Source of the DNA: an uncultured Anaerolineales bacterium
GTDB lineage: Bacteria; Chloroflexota; Anaerolineae; Epilineales; Epilineaceae
Direction: 5' to 3'
DNA length: 64,000 bases
Assembly: GCA_964651245.1 (NCBI GenBank)
Contig: CAZYVI010000010.1
Span: 93,182 to 157,181, forward strand
Made by a program: the position numbers and the translations under genes
Shown: positions 24,044-39,218 of the stretch, piece by piece
Layout: each line of letters starts with the position of its first letter
Position numbering within the stretch: the stretch's first letter is position 1
The notes under the pieces: generated by a model
The model's input: the letters and a program-made list of their open reading frames with translations, nothing else
What the model was told of the DNA's origin: nothing
The model's database searches: none

Positions 24044-26077
24044 ATGTGCGGCATCTACGGCGTCGTCGTCCGACCCGGCGCGGCCATCGATCCGGCGCGC
24101 GTGGCGGCGATGGGCGCGGCGCTGGCCCACCGCGGGCCGGACGATGCCCACAGCTGGACGGACGGCACGGCGGCGCTGGGCGCGACGCGGCTGTCGATCA
24201 TCGACGTCGCGGGCGGCCGGCAGCCGGTGGCCAACGAGGACGGCTCGATCGTCGCCTGCCAGAACGGCGAGCTCTACAACTACGCCGCGCTGCGGGCCGA
24301 GCTGGCCGCCGCCGGCCACGCCTTCGGCAACCACGGCGACACCGAGGTCCTGCCGCACCTCTACGAGGCGGACGGCCTCGACTTCGCGCGGCGGCTGCGC
24401 GGCATGTTCGCGGCTGCGATCTGGGACGCCCGCCGCGGCCGATTGGTGCTCTCGCGCGATCGGCTCGGGATCAAGCCGCTGCACTACGCCGAGAGCGACG
24501 ACGGCCTCTGGTTCGCCAGCGAGATCAAGGCGATCCTGGCCGCCGGCTACGCCAAGCGCCTCGACCCGCAGGCGCTGCACGACTACCTCAGCCTCGACTA
24601 CGTGCCCGGGCCGGCGACGATGTTCGACGGCATCCGCAAGCTGCCGCCCGGCGCGCAGCTCGTCTGGGACGCCGGCGCGCCGCGCGGCCGGGCGCTGGGC
24701 GTGCGGCAGTGGTGGTCGTGGCCGGCGCAGCGCGGCGCGCCGGCGGGCGCCGCCGACCGCGCCGCGCTGCCCACCGCGCTGCCGCGCAGCGAGGACGGCT
24801 GGGTGCGCGTGGTGCGCGCCGCGCTCGAGGACGCCGTGGCCGCCCACCTGGTCAGCGACGTCCCTGTCGGCGCGTTCCTGTCGGGCGGGATCGACTCGAG
24901 CGTCGTCGTCGCGCTGATGCAGCGGCTGAGCGGCCGCGTCGAGACGTTCGCCGTCGGCTTCGACGACGCGTCGTACGACGAGCTGCCGTACGCCGAGCGC
25001 GTTGCGGCCCACTGCGGCACGGTCCACCACGCGACGATCGTGCGCCCGGCCGCCGAGGCGCTCGTGCACGACCTCGTCACGGCGTTCGACGAGCCGTTCG
25101 CCGACTCCTCGGCCATCGGCTCGTGGATCGTGGCGCGCGAGGCGGCCGGGCACACCAAGGTCGTGCTGTCGGGCGACGGGGGCGACGAGGTCTTCGGCGG
25201 CTACGTCATCTACCAGGCCGACCGCCTGGCGGCGATCGGGCGGCGGCTGCCGTCGCTCCTCACGCGGCGTCTCCTGCCGTCGCTCGCCCGCGCCGTGCCG
25301 GCCTCCGATCGCAAGATGGCGCTCGACCTGCGGCTGCAGCGCTTCGCGCGCGGCATCGCGCTCGACCCGCTGGCGGCGCACCTGGCGTGGCGGGAGATCT
25401 TCGCCGAGGACGCCAAGGCGACCCTCTACGCCGCCCACGACACTGCACGCCTCGGCGCCCACGACACCGACCACCCATCCCACGAGGGCCTGGACCCCGG
25501 ATCCCACGCCCGTGTAGGGGCACGGCATGCCGTGCCCTCCCCCGCCGTCCGCCCCACCCTCGACCTACTCCGGGCCGCCCACGACGCCTACCCCCATGCC
25601 GACCCGATCAACCGCCTCATGGCCGTCGATGCCTCGATCAGCCTCGTCGACGACATGCTCACCAAGGTCGACCGCACGAGCATGGCCCACGGCCTCGAGG
25701 TTCGGGTGCCGCTGCTCGACCACCCGCTCGTCGAGTTGCTGGCGCGCGTGCCCGACGTCTACAAGGTCCGCCCGATCCACCGCGGCCTCGGCCTCAAGCC
25801 GCTCCTGCGCCGCGTCGCCGCCGACCTGCTGCCGGCCGACATCGTCCGTCGGCCCAAGGCCGGCTTCCACGTCCCGATCCCGGGCTGGCTCAAGGGCGAG
25901 CTCCGGCCGCTGCTCACCGATGTCCTGTCGCCGGCGCGGGTGCGGCGCCAGGGCATCTTCGATCCCGATGCGGTCGATGCGCTCGTCCGGGCCCACCTCG
26001 ACGGCCGCCACAACCTCAGCCGCGAGCTCTGGGGGCTCTTGATGTTCGGGCTGTGGTACGAGCGGCATCTGGCGTGA
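24044..26077 (+). CDS. asnB: asparagine synthase (glutamine-hydrolysing)
   Basis: N-terminal MCGIYG nucleophile Cys2. SGGIDSS PP-loop. The C-terminal synthetase domain continues to ...WYERHL. TATAAT at 24031-24036 plus 7 nt precedes the ATG, suggesting a leaderless transcript. Confidence 0.9.
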   Translation: MCGIYGVVVRPGAAIDPARVAAMGAALAHRGPDDAHSWTDGTAALGATRLSIIDVAGGRQPVANEDGSIVACQNGELYNYAALRAELAAAGHAFGNHGDTEVLPHLYEADGLDFARRLRGMFAAAIWDARRGRLVLSRDRLGIKPLHYAESDDGLWFASEIKAILAAGYAKRLDPQALHDYLSLDYVPGPATMFDGIRKLPPGAQLVWDAGAPRGRALGVRQWWSWPAQRGAPAGAADRAALPTALPRSEDGWVRVVRAALEDAVAAHLVSDVPVGAFLSGGIDSSVVVALMQRLSGRVETFAVGFDDASYDELPYAERVAAHCGTVHHATIVRPAAEALVHDLVTAFDEPFADSSAIGSWIVAREAAGHTKVVLSGDGGDEVFGGYVIYQADRLAAIGRRLPSLLTRRLLPSLARAVPASDRKMALDLRLQRFARGIALDPLAAHLAWREIFAEDAKATLYAAHDTARLGAHDTDHPSHEGLDPGSHARVGARHAVPSPAVRPTLDLLRAAHDAYPHADPINRLMAVDASISLVDDMLTKVDRTSMAHGLEVRVPLLDHPLVELLARVPDVYKVRPIHRGLGLKPLLRRVAADLLPADIVRRPKAGFHVPIPGWLKGELRPLLTDVLSPARVRRQGIFDPDAVDALVRAHLDGRHNLSRELWGLLMFGLWYERHLA

Positions 26078-30651: not shown

Positions 30652-33297
30652 ATGGCACCGCGACCGCGCCCGCCGCTCCCCCCGCTGCCCGTCGAGCGCA
30701 CCGCCCTCATCGGCCGCGACGAGGCGCGCCGCGCCGTGGCCGAGCGGCTGGCGCGGCCCGACGTCGGGCTGGTGACGATCACCGGGCCCGGCGGCGCCGG
30801 CAAGACGCGCCTCGCCCTCGCCGTCGCCGCCGACGTGCGCGATCAGTTCCCCGACGGCGTCGCGCTGGCGCCCCTGGCCGCCCTCGCCGACCCCGCCCGC
30901 GTGCCCGACGCCCTCGGCGCCGCCGTCGGCCTGGCCGAGGCCGACGGCGCGGCCGCCGTCGCCGCGGCCATCGGCGACGCGTCGCTCCTGCTCGTCGTCG
31001 ACAACTTCGAGCACGTCACGTCCGCCGCGCCGGTCGTCGCCGACCTCCTCGCGGCCTGCCCGGGCCTCAAGGTCGTGGCGACGAGCCGCGAGCCCCTCGG
31101 TCTCTACGGCGAGCACGAGCTGCCGCTGGCGCCGTTCGACGTGCCCCGCCTCGACCAGCTGCCGGCCGGGCGCGGCGTCGCCGACGTCCTGCCGGCGCTC
31201 GCCCGCAGCCCGGCCATCGCCTTGCTCGTCGAGCGCGCCCGCGCCGTGCGGCCCGACTTCGCGCTGACCGCCGCCAACGCGCCGGCTATCGTCGACATCT
31301 GCCGCCGGCTCGACGGGCTGCCGCTGGCCATCGAGCTGGCGGCCGGCCGGCTGCGGCTGCTCGACCCGGCCGCGCTGGCCGACCGCCTGGCCGAGAGCCT
31401 CGACGTCCTGGGCGTCGGGCCGCGCGACCGGCCGGCCCGCCAGCAGACGCTGCGCGGCGCCATCGACTGGAGCTACCGGCTGCTCGAGCCCGACGAGCAG
31501 GCCCTGTTCCGCAGCCTCGGCGCGTTCGCCGGCGCCGTCGGCGTCGCGGCGGCGGCGGCGGTGCGCGCGGCGCTGCCGGATGGCGGGGCGGTGGTCGAGC
31601 CCGGCCCGGCGGCCAACGGCGGGCGGTCCGGCGACGGGGCGGCGGTCGAGGCGGGGCTGGCGTCGCTGGCGGCCAAGAGCCTGGTGCGGCCGCAGCCGGG
31701 ACCCGGTCGTCCCCGCTTCGAGCTGCTGGCGATGCTGCGCGCCTACGCCGTCGAGGCGTTGCGCGCAGCGGGCGAGCACGACGCCGTGCGCCGCGCCCTG
31801 CTGCGGTGGTGCCTCGACGAGGCGCGCGACGCGGCGGCGGCGCTCGAGTCGGCCGAGCCGCGCACCGGGGTCGAGCGGATCGTGGCCGAGCACGACAACC
31901 TCGGCGCCGTCCTGGCGTGGTCGCTGGGCGGTGGCGTCGACGCCGCTGTGGCGCAGGACGGCGCGCGGCTGGCCATCGCCTTGGAGCGGTTCTGGCTGGT
32001 GCGCGGCCGGCCGGCCGAAGGCCAGCGCTGGTGCGCCCGCGCCGCCGCCGTCCTCGACGCCAGCCCCGGCGCCGCGCCGCGCGAGCGGCTGGCCGCGCAC
32101 CGCGCCACCGGCCGCTTCGCCTACCTGCGCCACGACGTCGCCGCCGCCTCCGAGGCGCTCGACGCGGCGATGGCGCTGGCCCGGGTGATCGGCGACGACC
32201 TCGAGGCGGCCCGGACGCTGCACAGCCTGGGCACGCTAGCGCGCAACGTCGGCCGGCTCGACGACGCGCGCGCGTGCTACGCCGAGGCGCTGATCCTGGG
32301 CCGGCAGGCCGGCGCCGCGCGCGAGCCGGCGATCAGCCTCTACAACCTGGGCGCGCTGGCGATGCTCGACGGCGACCTGCCGGCGGCCGAGGCCGCCTTG
32401 ACCGAGAGCCTGGCGCTGGCCGTGGCCGCTGGCGATGTCCGCGGCGAAGTTTTCGGCCGCAGCGCGCTCGGGACGTTGGCGGCCTGGCGCGGGCACGCCG
32501 ACGCGGCCGTCACCGCCCTCGAGGCCGCGCTGGCGCTGGCCGAGCGGCACGGCTTCCGCGACCACGCCGTTGGGCACGCCAGCCTTGCGCTCTCGGCGGT
32601 CGAGCACGGCCTCGGGCGGGTCGATCGGGCGGCGGCCGTTCTGGCCGCGGCGCTGGTCCGGCGCGTCGACGACGCCGTCGCGACCGCCCACCTGGTCTGG
32701 GCGGTGGCGAACCTCGTCGGCTGGCCGGCGACGGTGCCGATCGACGACGCGGCCGGGCCGCTCGCGGCGCGCCGCCGGCGGCCCGACGCGCGCCGATCGC
32801 GCGACGCGGCGGCGCTGGCGACGGCCCTGCGCCTCGTGGCCGCGGCCGAGGCCGTCGCGCCGCTGGCCGACGTCTTCGGGGCCGAAGACGCCGCGGTCGC
32901 CGACGCCAACCGCACCGCGCTGCGGACGGCGCTCGGCCCGGCGGCGGCGTCCATCGAGGCGGACGGGGCGGCGCTGGACATCGAAGCCGCTGTGGCCGAG
33001 GCCCTGGCGGCCTGTCGCCGGCTGGCCGAGGCGGCCCCGACGCCGCCGGCCGGGTGGGCGAACGACGACGCCACGCCCGAGGACGGTGGGCGCCGCGCCG
33101 ACATGCGCGCCATGCTCAGCGAGCGCGAGTGGGAGGTCGCCGAGCGCATCGCCGCCGGGCGCACCTACCGCCAGATCGCCGACGAGCTCGCGATCGTGCC
33201 GAAGACCGTCGAAAAGCACGTCGGCAGCGCGCTGGCCAAGCTGGGGCTGGCCAACCGGACCCAGCTGGCGTTGTGGGTGCGGGGGCGCACCGGGTAG
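30652..33297 (+). CDS. LuxR-family transcriptional regulator with an N-terminal NB-ARC/AAA (STAND) NTPase and TPR repeats
   Basis: Walker [12 protein letters not shown], Walker [18 protein letters not shown], and the LPLAIELAA helical domain. Long TPR-like Ala/Leu repeats. C-terminal [51 protein letters not shown] plus 6 nt precedes the ATG at 30652. Confidence 0.8.
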
Positions 33298-33360
33298 GAC
33301 GCGCGACCGCGCCGCCACATGCGATCGACCCGGGTCGCCGAGGGTCGCCCGCGAGGTGAA

Positions 33361-33830
33361 TGTAGGGGCACCCCTTGTGGGTGCCTATAGGCGACAAGGT
33401 AGCGGCCGCACGTAGATGATCGCGCTGCCGTCCGATCACCCGGCGATGAATCGCCGGGCTACAACAACGACGCCGGCTGAAGCCGGCAACAGGCAGCAAC
33501 ACGTATCGCGACGTGCCGTTTGGTTCCTCACTCCTCACCGCCGCTGAACCGTCCAAGCGGCCCCGGCTTCTCTGACCTAGGCGAGACCGCTGAAGGTCCG
33601 CCCGTAGCCGGCTTCAGCCGGCGTCGTTCCTGTAGCCCGGCCGTTCACGGCCGGGCGGGGCGGGGCGGGAACCGGACCACGCCGTGGCCGCTACCTTGTC
33701 GCCTATGGGGCACCCCTTGTGGGTGCCCTTCGCCCACCATGCGACCACCCTTCGCCCACCAGGCGAATACCATGCGACCGACGATGGTCGTGCAACGTGC
33801 GAAGGGCACCCACAAGGGGTGCCCCTACGC
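33361..33830. repeat. nested inverted-repeat element (MITE/SNR-like) in a convergent intergenic region
   Basis: gggcaccccttgtgggtgcc-tataggcgacaaggtagcggcc (33365-33407) is inverted against ggccgctaccttgtcgcctat-ggggcaccccttgtgggtgccc (33686-33727). An inner inverted repeat centres on the palindromic gccggctgaagccggc (about 33468-33492 against 33600-33636). A third copy of the gggcacccacaaggggtgccc hairpin lies at about 33800-33823. Direct repeats ttcgcccacc...atgcgacc lie at 33729-33780. No coding potential. Confidence 0.5.
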
Positions 33831-33858
33831 GGATGTCGTGACGAACGACAACGCCCCG

Positions 33859-34761
33859 CTAACCCCCCACCCGGTCGCGCGTCCGGCCGCGGCGGGCGCG
33901 CTTCTCGAGGAACTCGATGATGGCGCTGGCGACGTCGACGCCGCTGGCGGCCTCGATCCCCTCGAGGCCGGGCGACGAGTTGACCTCGATGACGAGCGGC
34001 CCGTGGTTGCTGCGCAACAGGTCGACGCCGGCCACGTTCAGGCCCAGCGTCTTGCAGGCGCGCACCGCCGTCGTCCGCTCCACCGGGCGCAGGCGGATGG
34101 CGCTGGCCGAGCCGCCGCGGTGGAGGTTGCTGCGGAACTCGCCCTCGGCCGCCTGCCGGCGCATCGCCGCCACCACCCGGCCGCCGACGACGAAGGCGCG
34201 GATGTCGGCGCCGCCGGCTTCGGCGATGAACTCCTGGAGCAGGATGTTGGCGTCGAGCTGTCGGAAGGCGGCGATGACCGACTCGGCCGCGTTGCGCGTC
34301 TCGGCCAGGACGACGCCCATCCCCTGGGTGCCCTCGAGCAGCTTGACGACGAACGGCGGCGAGCCGACGCTGTCGATCAGGCCCTGGATGTCCTTCGTGG
34401 CGTGGGCGAAGCCGGTGACGGGCAGGCCGACCCCCTCGCGGCTCAGCAGCTGCAGGCTGCGCAGCTTGTCGCGCGAGCGCGAGATCGCCTGCGACTCGTT
34501 GGCGGCGAAGACGCCCATCATCTCGAACTGGCGCACCACCGCCGTACCGTAGAACGTGTAGCTGGCGCCGATGCGCGGGATGATCGCGTCGAAGTCGAGC
34601 GTCTTGCCGCCGAGGATGACGGACGGCTTCTGCGACGTGATGTTCATGTAGCAGCGCAGATAGTCCACCACCTGGACCTCGTGGCCGCGCGCCTCGGCGG
34701 CCTCGCGCAGGCGGGAGGTGGAGTAGAGCGAGGCGCGGCGCGACAGGATGCCGATCTTCAC
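33859..34761 (-). CDS. rimK: ribosomal protein S6 modification protein RimK (alpha-L-glutamate ligase, ATP-grasp)
   Basis: Collinear match to recalled E. coli RimK: [91 protein letters not shown] start with GGAGAA 6 nt upstream. Confidence 0.9.
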
Positions 34762-35258
34762 GCGGGGTTCTCCGGGGCGGGGGTGGGCGCGCGGTCGTCG
34801 CCGGACATCGGCTCGCGCGCGGTCTGGAGGAACGAGCGGCCGCTGTGGACCAGGAAGCGGCGGCGCAGCGCCTGGCGGCCGAGGAGCAACCGGAAGCCCA
34901 TAACGTCGCGCCGCACCAGCGTCAGGTCGATCGGGTAGCGGTGGTCGCCCACCACGAGCGTCGTCGAGATCACCGGCCGGAACGTGAGCTTGCCGCTGGA
35001 CGAGCGCACCCACTTCATGCCCGCCAGCGGCGCGGCGCAGGCCACGATCGTGTCGTCGTCGCCCTGCACCGGATGGACCTGGAACCGCACCCAGCGCTCG
35101 CCGTCGCGCGCGAACCGCTTCACGTCCCAGGCGTGCAGCGCCGACGACCGCGCGCCGGTGTCGACCTTGGCCTTGACGGCCGCGATGCCGAGATCGGGCA
35201 GGGCCACCCACTCCCGCCACCCGATCGTCTCGAGCGTGCGCCGCGCGCGTTTGACCAC
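34758..35258 (-). CDS. RimK-associated ATP-dependent zinc protease (retropepsin-like, DUF785/PF05618)
   Basis: [36 protein letters not shown] start with GGAGGT 5 nt upstream. The stop overlaps the rimK start as GTGA. Confidence 0.7.
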
Positions 35259-35377: not shown

Positions 35378-38227
35378 TCAGGTAGGCGGCGCCGTGGCCA
35401 GCGCGACCGCGTCGTCGGCCGACAACGCCTCGCCCTCGGCCACGGCGGCCGCGGCGGCGTCGGCGCCGAGGGCGGCGACGACGGACGCTGTGTCGGCATC
35501 GCACTTGGGCACCTCGCGCGGCGTCAGGTGGGCGCCGATCCGATGCCGCAGACCGGCTGCGGCGCCGAACAGCCGCGCCGCCGCGATCGGGTTGCCCTCC
35601 GCCAGCGCCAGCCGGCCCAGCGGCGGCAGGACGCGCGACAACCCGCGCGGGTCGCCGGCGTCGAGGCGCAGCCGCGCCGCGGCGCCGAGCTCGGCGCGGG
35701 CGGCGGCCAGGTCGCCTTGGGCCAGCCGGATGTCGCCGCGGGTGTGGTGGATCGTGGCCAGCGTCCAGATGTCCTCGACGGCTTCGGCCAGCGGCCGCGC
35801 CTCGTCGAGCCAGGCCTCGGCGGCCGCCAGGTCGCGGGCGTCGGCGTCGATCCCCGCCAGGTTGATCAGCGTCGCCGCCATGCCCTCGCGGTCGTCGAGT
35901 TCGCGCTGGATGGCCAGGGCGGCGGCGAAGTGGTCCCGCGCTTCGGCCATGTCGCCGCGCTCGGCGGTGACGATGCCCAGACCGTGCAGCACGCCGGCCT
36001 CGGCGTAGCGGTCGCCCAGGCGCCGGGCGACGACCAGGTTGAGGCGCGCCGCATCGGCCGCGGCGTCGAGGTCGCCTTCGTCGACCGCCACGAGGCCGAG
36101 GTTGTGGACGATCCGCAGCGCCAGCGCGTCGTCGCCGCAGGCCTCGGCCAGCGCCCGGGCCTCGCCGAGGGCGGCGCGGGCGGCGGCGAAGTCGCCGCGC
36201 AGCCACGTCAGGACGCCGAGGCCGTTCATCGCCCGCGCGCGGGCGTTGGAGGCGCGGCCGGCGGCCGGGTTGGACAGGGCCCGGCGCAGGTAGGCTTGGC
36301 CTTCCTGGAGGTGGCCCCGCAGGTACCAGTAGCGCCAGAGGTCGGCGGCCATCGCCACCGCGGCGTCGGCCTGTCCGCGGGCGATGAGGTGGTCGAGGGC
36401 GGCGCGCAGGTTGGCGTGCTCGGCTGCCAGACGCTCGAGCCAGAGCGCCTGCTCGCCACCGACGACGTGCTGCCGGCCGGCATCGGCCATCGCCGCCAGC
36501 GCCGCGGCGTGCCGGTCGGCCACCGCCTCGGCCTCGCCGGCCGCGGCGAGCAGGTCGGCGGCGTACTCGATGACGACCTGGAACAGCGTGAACCGGGCGG
36601 AATCGCCCGCGGGCGCCGGCTGGACCAGGCTCATGTCGACGAGCGCCGTCAGCGACGTGAAGACGTCGAGCGGACTGGTCTCGGGGTCGACCGGGGCGGC
36701 GCAGATGGACTCGGCCAGCTCGATCGTCCAGCCGCCGCGGAAGACGGCCAGGCGGCGGAACAGCCGGCGCTCGTCGGGCCCGAGCAGGGCGTGGCTCCAG
36801 TCGAGGGTGGCGGCCAACGTCTGCTGCCGCGCCGGCAGGTCGCGCCGCGCCCCGCCGAGCTCGGCCAGCCGGCCTTCGAGGCGCGCCAGCAGCGCGGCCG
36901 GCGGCAGCATGCGCACCCGGGCCGCGGCCAGCTCGATCGCCAGCGGCACGCCGTCGAGACGGCGACAGATCGCCTCGACGGCCGCCGCGTTGTCGGCGGT
37001 GAGCGCGAAGTCGGCGTCGGTGGCGCGGGCGCGATCGACGAACAGCATCACGGCCGGGCTGGCGGCGACGGCGGCCACGGCATCGGCGTCGAGCCCGCGG
37101 GCGCTGCCGGCGGCGGCGTCGGGCAGGCGGTCGAGGTCGTCGAGGTCGTCGTCCGCTGCCGGCAGCGCCAGCGGGCCGAGGGCCACCTCGTGCTCGCCGC
37201 GCACCCGCAGCGGGGCGCGGCTGGTGACGATCAGCCGCAGCGACGGGCAGGCTTCGAGCAACGCGGCGAGGTCGGGGCCGACCGCCACGATCTGCTCGAG
37301 GTTGTCGAGCACCAGCAGCGTGCGGCGCTCGGCCAGGCGCGCCGTGAGCACCTCGGCCAGCGGCGTGCTGCCGCCCTCGGCGACGCCGAGCGCGGCCGCC
37401 AGGGCCGGCAGGACGAGGGCTGGATCGTCGATCGCGGCCAGCGGCACGAAGAAGGCGCCGTCGGGGAAGTCGTCGAGGGCCTCGGCGGCCAGCTGCAGCG
37501 CCAGCCGCGACTTGCCGATGCCGCCCGGTCCGGTCAGCGTCACAAGCCGGGCGTCGGGGCGGTCGAGGAGGGCGTGGACCTCGGCGACCTCGGCGGCGCG
37601 GTCGATGAGCGGCGTCAGCGCCTGCGGCAGGTTGTGGGGGTGGGCGTCGAGCGTCTTCAGCGCCGGGAACGCCGCCGGCAGGTCATCCACGACCGCTTGG
37701 TGGACCTCCTCCGGCGCCAGCAGGTCGCGCAGCCGGTGCGCGCCGAGCGACTGCAGCGCCACGCCCGAGGGCAGGTGGTCGCGCACCAGCAGCGCCACCG
37801 CCTGGCTGAGCAGGATCTGGCCGCCGTAGCCGGCCGCCATGAGCCGCGCCAGACGGTTGAGGCACGGCGCCACGTAGTCGCCGCGATGCGGTGCGGCCTC
37901 GCCGGCGTGGACCGCCATCCGCACCGCCAGCGGCCCGTCGGGCCCCCAGTCCGCCGTCGCCAGGGCGCGCTGGGCGTCGACGGCCGCGGCGAGGGCGTCG
38001 GGGGCGGTGTGGAACGCGGCCTGGACGGCGTCGCCGACGCGCTTGAACCAGACGCCGCCGTGCGCGGCGATCGCGCGCTCGACGATCGCGTCGTGCCGGG
38101 CCAGGGCGGCGCGCATGGCCGCGGCGTCGCGCTCCCAGCGGGCCGTGCTGCCCTGGATGTCGGTGAACAGGAAGGCGACGGTGCCGGTGGGCCAGGCGGG
38201 GGCGGCGTCGCCGGGCCGGGCGGTCAG
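35378..38227 (-). CDS. class III adenylate/guanylate cyclase domain fused to an NB-ARC (STAND) NTPase and a long TPR array; no HTH; start codon uncertain
   Basis: Cyclase motifs [44 protein letters not shown] motifs [39 protein letters not shown]. More than ten TPR-like repeats follow. No in-frame ATG or GTG lies upstream of the cyclase domain; only a CTG at 38225-38227, which overlaps the upstream gene's stop. Confidence 0.75.
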
Positions 38228-38790
38228 CGGACGAGCTCCGCCGCCAGCCCGACCGCCAGCAGTCCCAGGCCGAGCAGGACGAACAGCGACGCCTGGTTGA
38301 AGGCACGCAGCTTGGCGTTCGTGATCACGGCGTTGGCGACGATCTGGCCGGCCAGCGCGACGTGCAGCGGGTGGTCGGCCGGCGCGTAGCCCGTGGCGCC
38401 GCCGTAGCGGGCGGCGACCTCGGCGGCGAGCTCGTCGGGCGTGTAGGCCGCCAGGTGGCCGCTGTAGAACAGGTTGTCGTGCGGCTCGCCGCGGCGGGGG
38501 CGCGACGGCCGCAGCCGCGGCGGGCCGTGCGGCCGGAACGACCACACCGCGGTGGCCAGCGCCGCCAGGAACGCCAGCTCGGCGGCGCCGAACGCGGCCA
38601 CCGCCGGCGCCGGCATGTTGTCGGCGCCGCGCAGCAGGCTGATCATCGCCGCGTTCGCCGTGCCCGTCAGGGCGGAGACGGCCAGGTTCTTGGCCTCGGC
38701 GAACCGCAGCCAGGCGTCGACGCGGTCGAGGATGTCGGCCAGGAGGTCGCCGGTCGGGCCGGCGTCGGCGGCCGGCGCGCGGGCGGTCAT
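38224..38790 (-). CDS. hypothetical membrane protein (188 aa; hydrophobic segments plus a C-terminal TM anchor)
   Basis: MTARAPAADAGPTGDLLADILDRVDAWLRFAEAKN..., hydrophobic stretches, then the C-terminal SLFVLLGLGLLAVGLAAELV. Its ATG overlaps the upstream stop as ATGA at 38787-38790, and its stop overlaps the cyclase CTG. Confidence 0.5.
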   Translation of the reverse strand: MTARAPAADAGPTGDLLADILDRVDAWLRFAEAKNLAVSALTGTANAAMISLLRGADNMPAPAVAAFGAAELAFLAALATAVWSFRPHGPPRLRPSRPRRGEPHDNLFYSGHLAAYTPDELAAEVAARYGGATGYAPADHPLHVALAGQIVANAVITNAKLRAFNQASLFVLLGLGLLAVGLAAELVR

Positions 38791-39218
38791 GCCGCCGGCC
38801 AGAACCGCGTGACGAGCTCGTCGACGATCGGGACGAGCAGCACCGTCGTGGCCAGGATGGCCGGCGTCACCCCTTCGTCGAGGCCGAACAGGTCGCCGCC
38901 GGCCGAGGTGACGCTGACGGCCCAGCCGACGTAGGCCACGCCCGCCAACGCGTAGAAGTACCACGGCCCGCGGGTCTGCTGCTCGCGCAGCCGCGTCGCC
39001 AGCAGGTAGAGGACGGTGCCGACGAGGCCGATGCCGAAGACCGCCCAGCGCCAGGCGGCGGCGCTGTCCGGCAGGTTGGCGTACGTCGGCACGTAGAACG
39101 CCAGCACCTCGGCCGGGACGTACTTCGTCAGCTTGCTCGGCAGCGTGTCGGCCTCGCCGCCGGCGTCGGCGGCGCGCACGCGCTGGCTGTCGGGGGCGTA
39201 GACGATGGCGCGGGGCAT
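38787..39218 (-). CDS. hypothetical small membrane protein (143 aa, 3 TM helices)
   Basis: MPRAIVYAPDSQ... then WRWAVFGIGLVGTVLYLL, PWYFYALAGVAYVGWAV, VTPAILATTVLLVPIV. Strong RBS: GAGGAGG 5 nt upstream of the ATG at 39216-39218. Confidence 0.55.
   Translation of the reverse strand: MPRAIVYAPDSQRVRAADAGGEADTLPSKLTKYVPAEVLAFYVPTYANLPDSAAAWRWAVFGIGLVGTVLYLLATRLREQQTRGPWYFYALAGVAYVGWAVSVTSAGGDLFGLDEGVTPAILATTVLLVPIVDELVTRFWPAA

Follow-up and report, generated by a model that had tools for sequence, protein, structure and literature searches.

A stretch of 64,000 nucleotides from the genome of an uncultured Ardenticatenales bacterium (Chloroflexota; contig CAZYVI010000010.1; hereafter the window) carries a block of nested inverted repeats that is very probably a cluster of repetitive extragenic palindromes (REPs), arranged in the manner of REP doublets forming hairpins (REPINs) and of bacterial interspersed mosaic elements (BIMEs), and of the type associated with group 4 REP-associated tyrosine transposases (RAYTs, or TnpAREP). 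Four types of hairpin unit, named H, D, B and C, follow one another in the symmetric and nested order H+ D+ B- C- / C+ B+ D- H+ ... H-. This assignment explains a conspicuous palindrome as an ordinary, if elaborate, REP cluster and extends REP and REPIN biology to an uncultured Ardenticatenales lineage; our confidence is lower for mobilisation of the units in this genome and for an effect on gene regulation. The block occupies an intergenic gap of 561 bp between the stop codon of a LuxR/STAND-type regulator gene (30652-33297, +) and that of rimK (33859-34761, -), the 3′ ends of both genes facing it. An earlier note on this DNA, written from the sequence alone, had placed a repeat element of about 470 bp without a protein-like open reading frame between convergent genes, and both points hold: no gene with a coding signature was found in the 561 bp.

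The H hairpin in other genomes

The window contains three exact copies of the 20-mer GGGCACCCCTTGTGGGTGCC (33366 +, 33708 + and 33805 -), part of unit H, a number reached in 0 of 100 shuffled sequences (mean 0.01 matches). When one genome per species was scanned with GGGCACCCCTTGTGGGTGCC, it was found at no fewer than 120 loci in a dozen or more phyla, those among the matches listed being Acidobacteriota, several classes of Chloroflexota (with many Caldilineaceae), Planctomycetota, Desulfobacterota, Gemmatimonadota, Proteobacteria, Cyanobacteria, Bacteroidota/Rhodothermota and several candidate phyla. Alignment of 158 copies yielded the conserved unit GTAG-GGGCACCC-CTTGT-GGGTGCCC, with GTAG directly on the 5′ side in nearly all of the copies listed. 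The first H unit of the window, H1, is identical to this consensus of 158 copies from at least 120 loci of other genomes. Elsewhere H occurs as singletons, as head-to-head dimers 32-60 nt apart and as tandem arrays with a period of 39-74 nt, and among the matches listed there are genomes with multiple H loci each.

What defines a REP is a G+C-rich hairpin with the tetranucleotide GTAG at its foot (PMC3733652, PMC8266576), and a foot of three G-C pairs distinguishes the "canonical long REP" of subclass-2.4 TnpAREP (Quentin et al. 2018, PMC6006769). H has this foot (GTAG-GGG...CCC), as does unit B (GTAG-CCC...GGG). The hairpin is maintained by compensatory change: sister variants of H carry the paired stem sequences CACC/GGTG, CGGG/CCCG, CAGG/CCTG, CAAC/GTTG, CGAC/GTCG and others, and among sequences chosen by the invariant parts of the unit alone, with no requirement for pairing, 8 of the 20 distinct combinations at the four variable stem positions are fully Watson-Crick. 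The stem positions of H covary among its copies, and the two B units of the window likewise differ by paired substitutions. By these features H is recognisable as a canonical long REP of the subclass-2.4 or group-4 RAYT tyrosine transposases. Neither the H sequence nor its peptides were found by full-text literature search. Scans of viral contigs found H in only three contigs and B1, the first B unit, in none, and a phage link for these units was rejected.

H within RAYT genes

In other genomes H lies in frame within RAYT genes, where it encodes the peptide VGAPLVGA between the NH[IFV]H and YIxNNP motifs of TnpAREP (loci L007 and L068, and many database proteins). The product of the L007 gene reads MPNHFH...VGAPLVGA (three times, from three H units)...WQRNYYEH...YILNNP, and that of L068 is similar; further H units follow downstream of the RAYT gene in L007. 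Dozens of the 120 best database relatives have VGAPLVGA...AGTRPAPT at the position of H, and these relatives are annotated as "REP element-mobilizing transposase RayT" (Pfam PF01797). A REP in frame within the tnpAREP gene is a published hallmark of subclass 2.4 (PMC6006769). Group 4 RAYTs are reported to be common in Cyanobacteria, Chlorobia and Caldilineae, and the many Caldilineaceae among the H matches fit their reported abundance in the last of these (PMC5581495). Among all fetched loci, RAYT genes were present only in L007, L068 and L059.

The L007 gene (1780-2520, -, from a metagenome-assembled genome (MAG) of Longimicrobiaceae) deserves mention for its three tandem internal H units, one spacing of which is 40 nt instead of 39 nt and shifts the frame, and for the continuation of its reading frame into the downstream REP array.

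REPs are usually regarded as lineage-specific. The 25-mer GTAGGGGCACCCCTTGTGGGTGCCC, by comparison, is identical across at least 120 loci in a dozen or more phyla; because it is part of the subclass-2.4 RAYT reading frame (as VGAPLVGA), it might travel together with the RAYT gene and be held constant with it. The wider interest of the unit is that a single 25-nt REP, identical over such a range, is encoded in frame in its presumed transposase gene.

A further H-like hairpin with a GTAG tag, GTAGGGGCACGGCATGCCGTGCCC, was noted in the window at 25514-25537 (+), in frame within an asparagine synthase gene. It encodes VGARHAVP in a low-complexity linker, and as this peptide is kept in the orthologues of two related genomes, GTAGGGGCACGGCATGCCGTGCCC looks like an old intragenic REP.

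Architecture of the block

The units and flanks of the block are listed below. The 321-bp segment between H1 and H2 (33386-33706), an imperfect palindrome, is called the core, and sites of related genomes that lack the block are called empty; loci of other genomes are given by number.

33297-33309: outer closing arm a (GGACGCGCGACCG), 13 of 13 nt complementary to 33872-33884, directly 3′ of the LuxR-type gene stop.
33310-33361: left non-REP flank, absent from empty sites L142, L150, L131 and L134.
33362-33385 (+): REP unit H1, GTAG + GGGCACC-CCTTGT-GGGTGCC, last stem base lost at the core junction.
33386-33407: outer arm X, left copy (TATAGGCGACAAGGTAGCGGCC), 21-nt perfect complement of 33686-33706, overlapping the GTAG of D1.
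33399-33430 (+): putative unit D1, GTAG + imperfect hairpin CGGCcGCaCG...CGcGCtGCCG, found by direct reading; aligns with D2; a weak unit, probably a decayed REP.
33439-33462 (-): REP unit B1, GTAG-CCCGGCGAT-TCA-TCGCCGGG, perfect 8-bp stem, tag towards the centre.
33472-33490 (-): putative unit C1, GTTG-CCGGCTTCAGCCGGC, 6-7-bp stem, degenerate tag.
33491-33603: central loop of the long palindrome, about 113 nt, without a REP unit; terminator-like hairpin at 33500-33515 (+).
33604-33622 (+): putative unit C2, GTAG-CCGGCTTCAGCCGGC, 6-7-bp stem, inverted partner of C1.
33632-33655 (+): REP unit B2, GTAG-CCCGGCCGT-TCA-CGGCCGGG, inverted partner of B1.
33673-33694 (-): putative unit D2, GTAG-CGGCCAC-GGC-GTGGTCCG, one stem mismatch, inverted partner of D1, tag outward.
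33686-33706: outer arm X, right copy (GGCCGCTACCTTGTCGCCTAT), perfect complement of 33386-33406.
33707-33728 (+): REP body H2 (GGGGCACCCCTTGTGGGTGCCC), TATG in place of GTAG, followed by CT-TCGC.
33729-33803: spacer of the H2/H3 inverted dimer, made of 22-nt units (CTTCGCCCACC + ATGCGACC).
33804-33828 (-): REP unit H3, GTAG-GGGCACCC-CTTGT-GGGTGCCC, perfect 8-bp stem, head-to-head dimer with H2.
33829-33858: right non-REP flank, running to the rimK stop codon.
33872-33884: outer closing arm b (CGGTCGCGCGTCC), within the last rimK codons.

GTAG is followed by a perfect stem of 7-8 bp in H1, H3, B1 and B2 and by a stem of 6-7 bp in C2, while the stems of D1 and D2 are imperfect and the tags of H2 (TATG) and C1 (GTTG) are degenerate. 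Four of the seven sites in the window at which GTAG precedes a perfect hairpin fall within the 470 bp; control tetranucleotides gave 0-3 sites in the whole window, except for the commoner GTGG (6) and GCAG (8).

At its extremes the block has a perfect 24-nt inverted pair (33362-33385 and 33805-33828), and the arms of H2 and H3 (33707-33733 and 33799-33825) are perfect inverted repeats of 27 nt with 65 nt between them. The latter pair in both the RNA and the DNA folds and have the geometry of a REPIN; the earlier note had listed this third hairpin copy, which exists, although it lies at 33804-33828 on the minus strand as the inverted partner of the second copy. H1 and H2 share a 21-nt direct repeat (33365-33385 and 33707-33727, 342 nt apart), so that what had been described as outer arms is correct for 33386-33406 and 33686-33706, a perfect 21-nt complement, but not for the hairpin units on their flanks, which are direct rather than inverted. 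The inner arms are a real inverted pair, longer than first described, of 56 nt with 86% complementarity (33439-33494 and 33600-33655), and the halves 33362-33500 and 33595-33731 align end to end with 109 of 145 columns matching. A supposed perfect 16-bp palindrome, gccggctgaagccggc (33472-33487), proved to be a 6-bp stem with a 4-nt loop that has its reverse complement at 33607-33622. The short direct repeats CTTCGCCCACC and ATGCGACC were confirmed as members of a family of 22-nt tandem units at 33726-33769. The repeat finder detected the inverted pairs and the tandem family; no other copy of the intergenic sequence exists within the window. In the left flank, CATGCGATCGACCCGGGTCG (33318-33337) is related to the H2-H3 spacer, as a direct repeat 80% identical to 33771-33790.

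Four other classes of element were judged by their anatomy and rejected (CRISPR, integron attC, retron and degraded REPtron): the spacings are irregular, there are no R′/R″ core sites, and no reverse transcriptase, integrase or RAYT remnant is nearby.

Filled and empty sites in related genomes

Homologues of RimK identify the kin of this organism among Ardenticatenales MAGs. The order of genes is kept in these relatives, and the convergent genes abut: empty sites have 0 bp between the genes in L131, L134 and L135, 18 bp in L142-L144 and 12 bp in L150, and the RimK proteins of relatives without the block are 96-98% identical to that of the window. Filled sites are L122, L128, L145 and L146. L122, an ENA contig, is the same locus at 99.9% identity, and it comes from the same metagenome as the empty L150. 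In L128, L145 and L146 the rimK-proximal flank is followed by H3, and the short-read contigs stop within that unit or slightly beyond it, L128 reaching into the H2-H3 spacer; eight contigs of a 98.5-99%-identical strain do likewise. Nine short-read contigs from closely related strains have their ends at or in H3. The filled L145, L146 and L128 have in common GTCACGACA(G/T)CC just before GTAG in the right flank, which is absent from the empty sites.

What the empty sites lack reaches past the terminal inverted repeats (TIRs) formed by the 24-nt pair, by about 50 nt and about 25 nt. Because the genes of close relatives are only 0-18 bp apart, the whole block, some 540 bp long (roughly 33310-33850), represents a polymorphic insertion, placed within the loop of a small palindrome that had extended across both stop codons. 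The closing stem around the whole block (33297-33309 with 33872-33884) is a perfect 13-nt match, and its arms are about 25 nt apart in relatives with empty sites, arm a being half of the small pre-existing palindrome that the insertion split. The patchy distribution among lineages indicates repeated gain, loss or recombination. The block is also still changing in length, one 22-nt unit of the H2-H3 spacer being missing in L128, a contig of 96.8% identity. The natural filled and empty alleles of close strains offer a ready test of the effect of the block on expression of the flanking convergent genes.

These comparisons bear on the explanation that the block is a complex bidirectional terminator, built up where it stands, without transposition, as G+C-rich hairpins were duplicated and inverted locally. 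Its situation between convergent genes, within an older small palindrome spanning both stop codons, would suit such an origin, as would the two terminator-like hairpins that face each other near the centre and the observed slippage of the local 22-nt unit. However, with empty sites of only 0-18 bp, some 540 bp must have been brought in from elsewhere, and unrelated genomes have units identical to H and B1, H also being present in RAYT genes. This identity rules out local drift as the source of those units, and we consider growth in place very unlikely as an account of the block.

SJ541, a related genome, is empty at the orthologous site (L134) and has H at two or more other loci. One of these clusters (L020) has the order H+, H+, H-, as in the window; another (L069) has a head-to-head H dimer with a 104-nt tandem-repeat spacer that contains CCATGCG, as the spacer of the window does, a likeness outside H that is only suggestive. 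The REP clusters of SJ541 (L069 3549-3721 and L020 1706-1878) have short, imperfect palindromes on their two sides (for example CGCGCCC...GGGACGCG). That both they and the block of the window lie inside small palindromes suggests a preference for palindromic targets, as reported for Thermomicrobium roseum.

On the other side of the block, the LuxR/STAND regulator is missing or reduced to a remnant in L132, L133, L136, L137, L148 and L149, where a GCS2-CBS gene follows rimK; the gene boundary is thus variable among members of this lineage. An exact look-up found the LuxR-type protein not on record, and a homology search with its alanine-rich C-terminus returned nothing at E ≤ 1e-30.

Inner arms and folding

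The inner arms, too, can be read as strings of GTAG-tagged hairpins (D, B and C). An exact copy of the 24-mer of B1 is present at L061 3366, within a REP cluster from a MAG of Planctomycetaceae, and that cluster also contains a related inverted partner. Between B1 and B2 there are paired changes, from GAT/ATC to CGT/ACG, which preserve each small hairpin and reduce pairing between the arms. Because the local hairpins are kept while the long pairing is weakened, the structures under constraint would be the local hairpins and not one giant fold. The central loop has no similarity to the fetched loci except L122, the 99.9%-identical assembly of the same locus.

A large structured RNA, suggested by the earlier note, would be either a noncoding RNA gene or a cis-regulatory structure of the 3′ untranslated region selected for its fold. 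The folding energy is extreme, the two strands having z-scores of -16.4 and -16.5, and since the block lies downstream of two genes it is probably transcribed. Against this, both strands fold equally well, as expected of DNA palindromes; the DNA fold of 33290-33890 has z = -18.1 and includes the closing stem of arms a and b. The Rfam search gave no match at the gathering score over the window and nothing usable over the region at E values up to 10, the best sub-threshold match covering a single 40-nt hairpin; the scan for sigma-70 promoters gave zero sites, and the tRNA and tmRNA scan found none. The region is moreover absent from relatives with 96-98% identical RimK, the length of the spacer varies between near-identical strains, and the changes between B1 and B2 weaken the long-range helix while keeping the local hairpins. 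A structured RNA is therefore extremely improbable.

The sub-threshold Rfam match lies on B1 (33439-33478; family Acido-Lenti-1, 23.4 bits against a cut-off of 37, E = 0.005). The consensus of this family is a hairpin followed by GGCUA, and Acido-Lenti-1 could itself be a repeat of the REP type that has been read on the other strand.

The 321-bp core

Direct 21-nt copies of the REP body bound the core, the junctions of which lie precisely at the two feet of the hairpin: H1 loses its last stem base and the CT, and H2 loses GTAG. The 5′ junction lies between the would-be tag position and the stem, and the 3′ junction just before CT, the dinucleotide at which TnpAREP is reported to cut. None of the other 158 H copies listed has the same junction or is followed by the core end. 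A second copy of the core or of the 470-bp composite was found neither in the window nor among fetched loci totalling about 1 Mb, nor in the metagenome contigs of JGI, a collection that probably lacks the source organism, since the RimK of that organism is listed only from NCBI, Logan and ENA. A metagenome scan with a 20-mer of outer arm X gave four matches, all of them chance occurrences in coding sequence (such as a biotin-carboxylase-type LGDKVAA motif).

These data also speak against a classical MITE (miniature inverted-repeat transposable element), that is, a deletion derivative of a DDE-type insertion sequence (IS) with TIRs and target-site duplications, inserted as one 467-bp unit (33362-33828), or alternatively the core alone as a TA-flanked IS630/Tc1-like MITE. 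The perfect 24-nt TIRs (33362-33385 and 33805-33828), the TA on both sides of the core sequence GGCGAC...GTCGCC (33388-89 and 33704-05) and the absence of the block from related genomes would suit a MITE. Yet no clean target-site duplication is present, the 467-bp unit being flanked by AAT on one side and GCG on the other, and empty sites lack more DNA than the unit bounded by TIRs. The "TIR" is a REP hairpin distributed across phyla and not the end of an IS, and the TA beside the core belongs to the palindrome itself; the scan with TA and the core end gave only the four chance matches. No transposase remnant was found in the window or in the fetched orthologous loci, nor, in the collections named above, any further copy of the whole element or core. 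A MITE is accordingly highly unlikely. The earlier suggestion of a MITE or dispersed structured repeat survives in part: the REP hairpins are dispersed, miniature and non-autonomous, and do not amount to a MITE in the strict sense.

Another idea concerns the core junctions themselves, which could be the in vivo footprint of a RAYT-catalysed strand transfer by which a REP acquired a foreign palindromic segment, or the mark of a separate small element that targets REP hairpins. The evidence speaks neither for nor against it, and we give it a slender chance. If true, the junctions would be rare direct evidence of how REP clusters grow.

Several observations weigh against the assignment of the block to a RAYT-dependent REP cluster. 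There are only three H copies and one H-like intragenic unit in 64 kb; a RAYT gene was found neither in the window nor in about 120 kb of orthologous DNA from relatives, and tblastn detected nothing of a decayed RAYT gene in the window. For units C and D and arm X no counterpart was found elsewhere, and at the 76% G+C of this genome they could be hairpins of local origin or due to chance; it is by anatomy only that they are provisionally placed in the REP class. TnpAREP is not known to produce a direct duplication like that of 21 nt of the H body around the core, and the patchy presence and absence of the block may reflect deletion or recombination instead of insertion. As for a role at 3′ ends, only two weak terminator-like sites were found, facing each other near the centre of the block; one of them, on the minus strand, is C1 with a T-rich run after its stem.

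Comparison with known systems and proposed mechanism

The closest likeness is to the REPs of subclass-2.4 TnpAREP, which share with the block the 5′ GTAG, the foot of three G-C pairs, the head-to-head dimers and the in-frame units in tnpAREP, and which occur in many phyla, the Caldilineae relatives of this organism among them; the cluster of the window differs in having no tnpAREP nearby, in the tagless H2, and in its extra hairpin types (B, C and D) and non-REP DNA. The H2/H3 pair resembles REPINs (Bertels & Rainey 2011) and the BIMEs of Escherichia coli, in which inverted REPs and their spacer fold into a longer hairpin, several REPs of both orientations occupy one intergenic region, and the site is polymorphic between relatives. 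In BIMEs, however, the REPs alternate regularly with defined types of linker, whereas the order in the window is symmetric and nested, with one unusually long spacer.

REPs with GTAG tags have a preference for intergenic regions between convergent open reading frames, nest within palindromes and form clusters in which DNA from their flanks is included (Di Nocera et al. 2013, PMC3733652). Like the GTAG-15 family of Anabaena variabilis and the GTAG-23 family of T. roseum (PMC3733652), the block has REP dimers inside longer or pre-existing palindromes; in a G+C-rich member of the Chloroflexi, REPs likewise form blocks at few loci and lie within small G+C palindromes. The palindrome sequences are different from those of GTAG-15 and GTAG-23, and the REPs of the window also form the arms of the palindrome, not just its centre. 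Elements of the IS200/IS605 group have similar subterminal hairpins with a 5′ guide tetranucleotide, and their HuH/Y1 single-strand transposition makes no target duplication; in contrast, the window has no transposase gene between the hairpins, and its units are far shorter and non-autonomous.

By analogy with the TnpAREP/REP pairs that have been studied, we infer the following mechanism. Each unit would fold on single-stranded DNA, for example the lagging-strand template, where a TnpAREP of the HuH/Tyr type would read the GTAG guide and the stem and cut at CT beside the hairpin; CT is the cleavage dinucleotide reported for the E. coli TnpAREP (PMC8266576), and H2 and H3 have CT directly on the 3′ side of the hairpin. 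Re-joining of strands would copy REP or REPIN units into permissive sites without target duplication. In this genome, mobilised by a RAYT, units would have landed in the loop of the small palindrome that overlaps both stop codons of the convergent genes, and the cluster would later have grown by gain of REPs, inverted duplication and slippage of the 22-nt tandem units. The resulting stack of G+C-rich hairpins may act as a two-way barrier at both 3′ ends, by termination or by protection from 3′ exonucleases, an effect to be expected from other systems and probably a by-product rather than the reason for the existence of the block. E. coli REPs are reported to hinder both read-through and 3′ exonucleases.

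Other observations in the window

The rimK gene and the rimB-like gene next to it (33900-35200) have a G+C content of 0.65-0.72 in surroundings of 0.78-0.83, and RimK is 75-82% identical to proteins from other phyla; together these features may indicate a horizontal origin of the gene pair. Further along, a gene resembling PycTM or 2TM effectors (38224-38964, -; Pfam PF18967; PADLOC PDLC00668, E = 6.6e-25) is directly upstream of a gene for a STAND NTPase with TPR repeats (35378-38545, -). No nucleotide cyclase is evident, apart from a weak Guanylate_cyc match (E = 7e-4) in the upstream extension of the long open reading frame; the two genes may be a defence-related pair.

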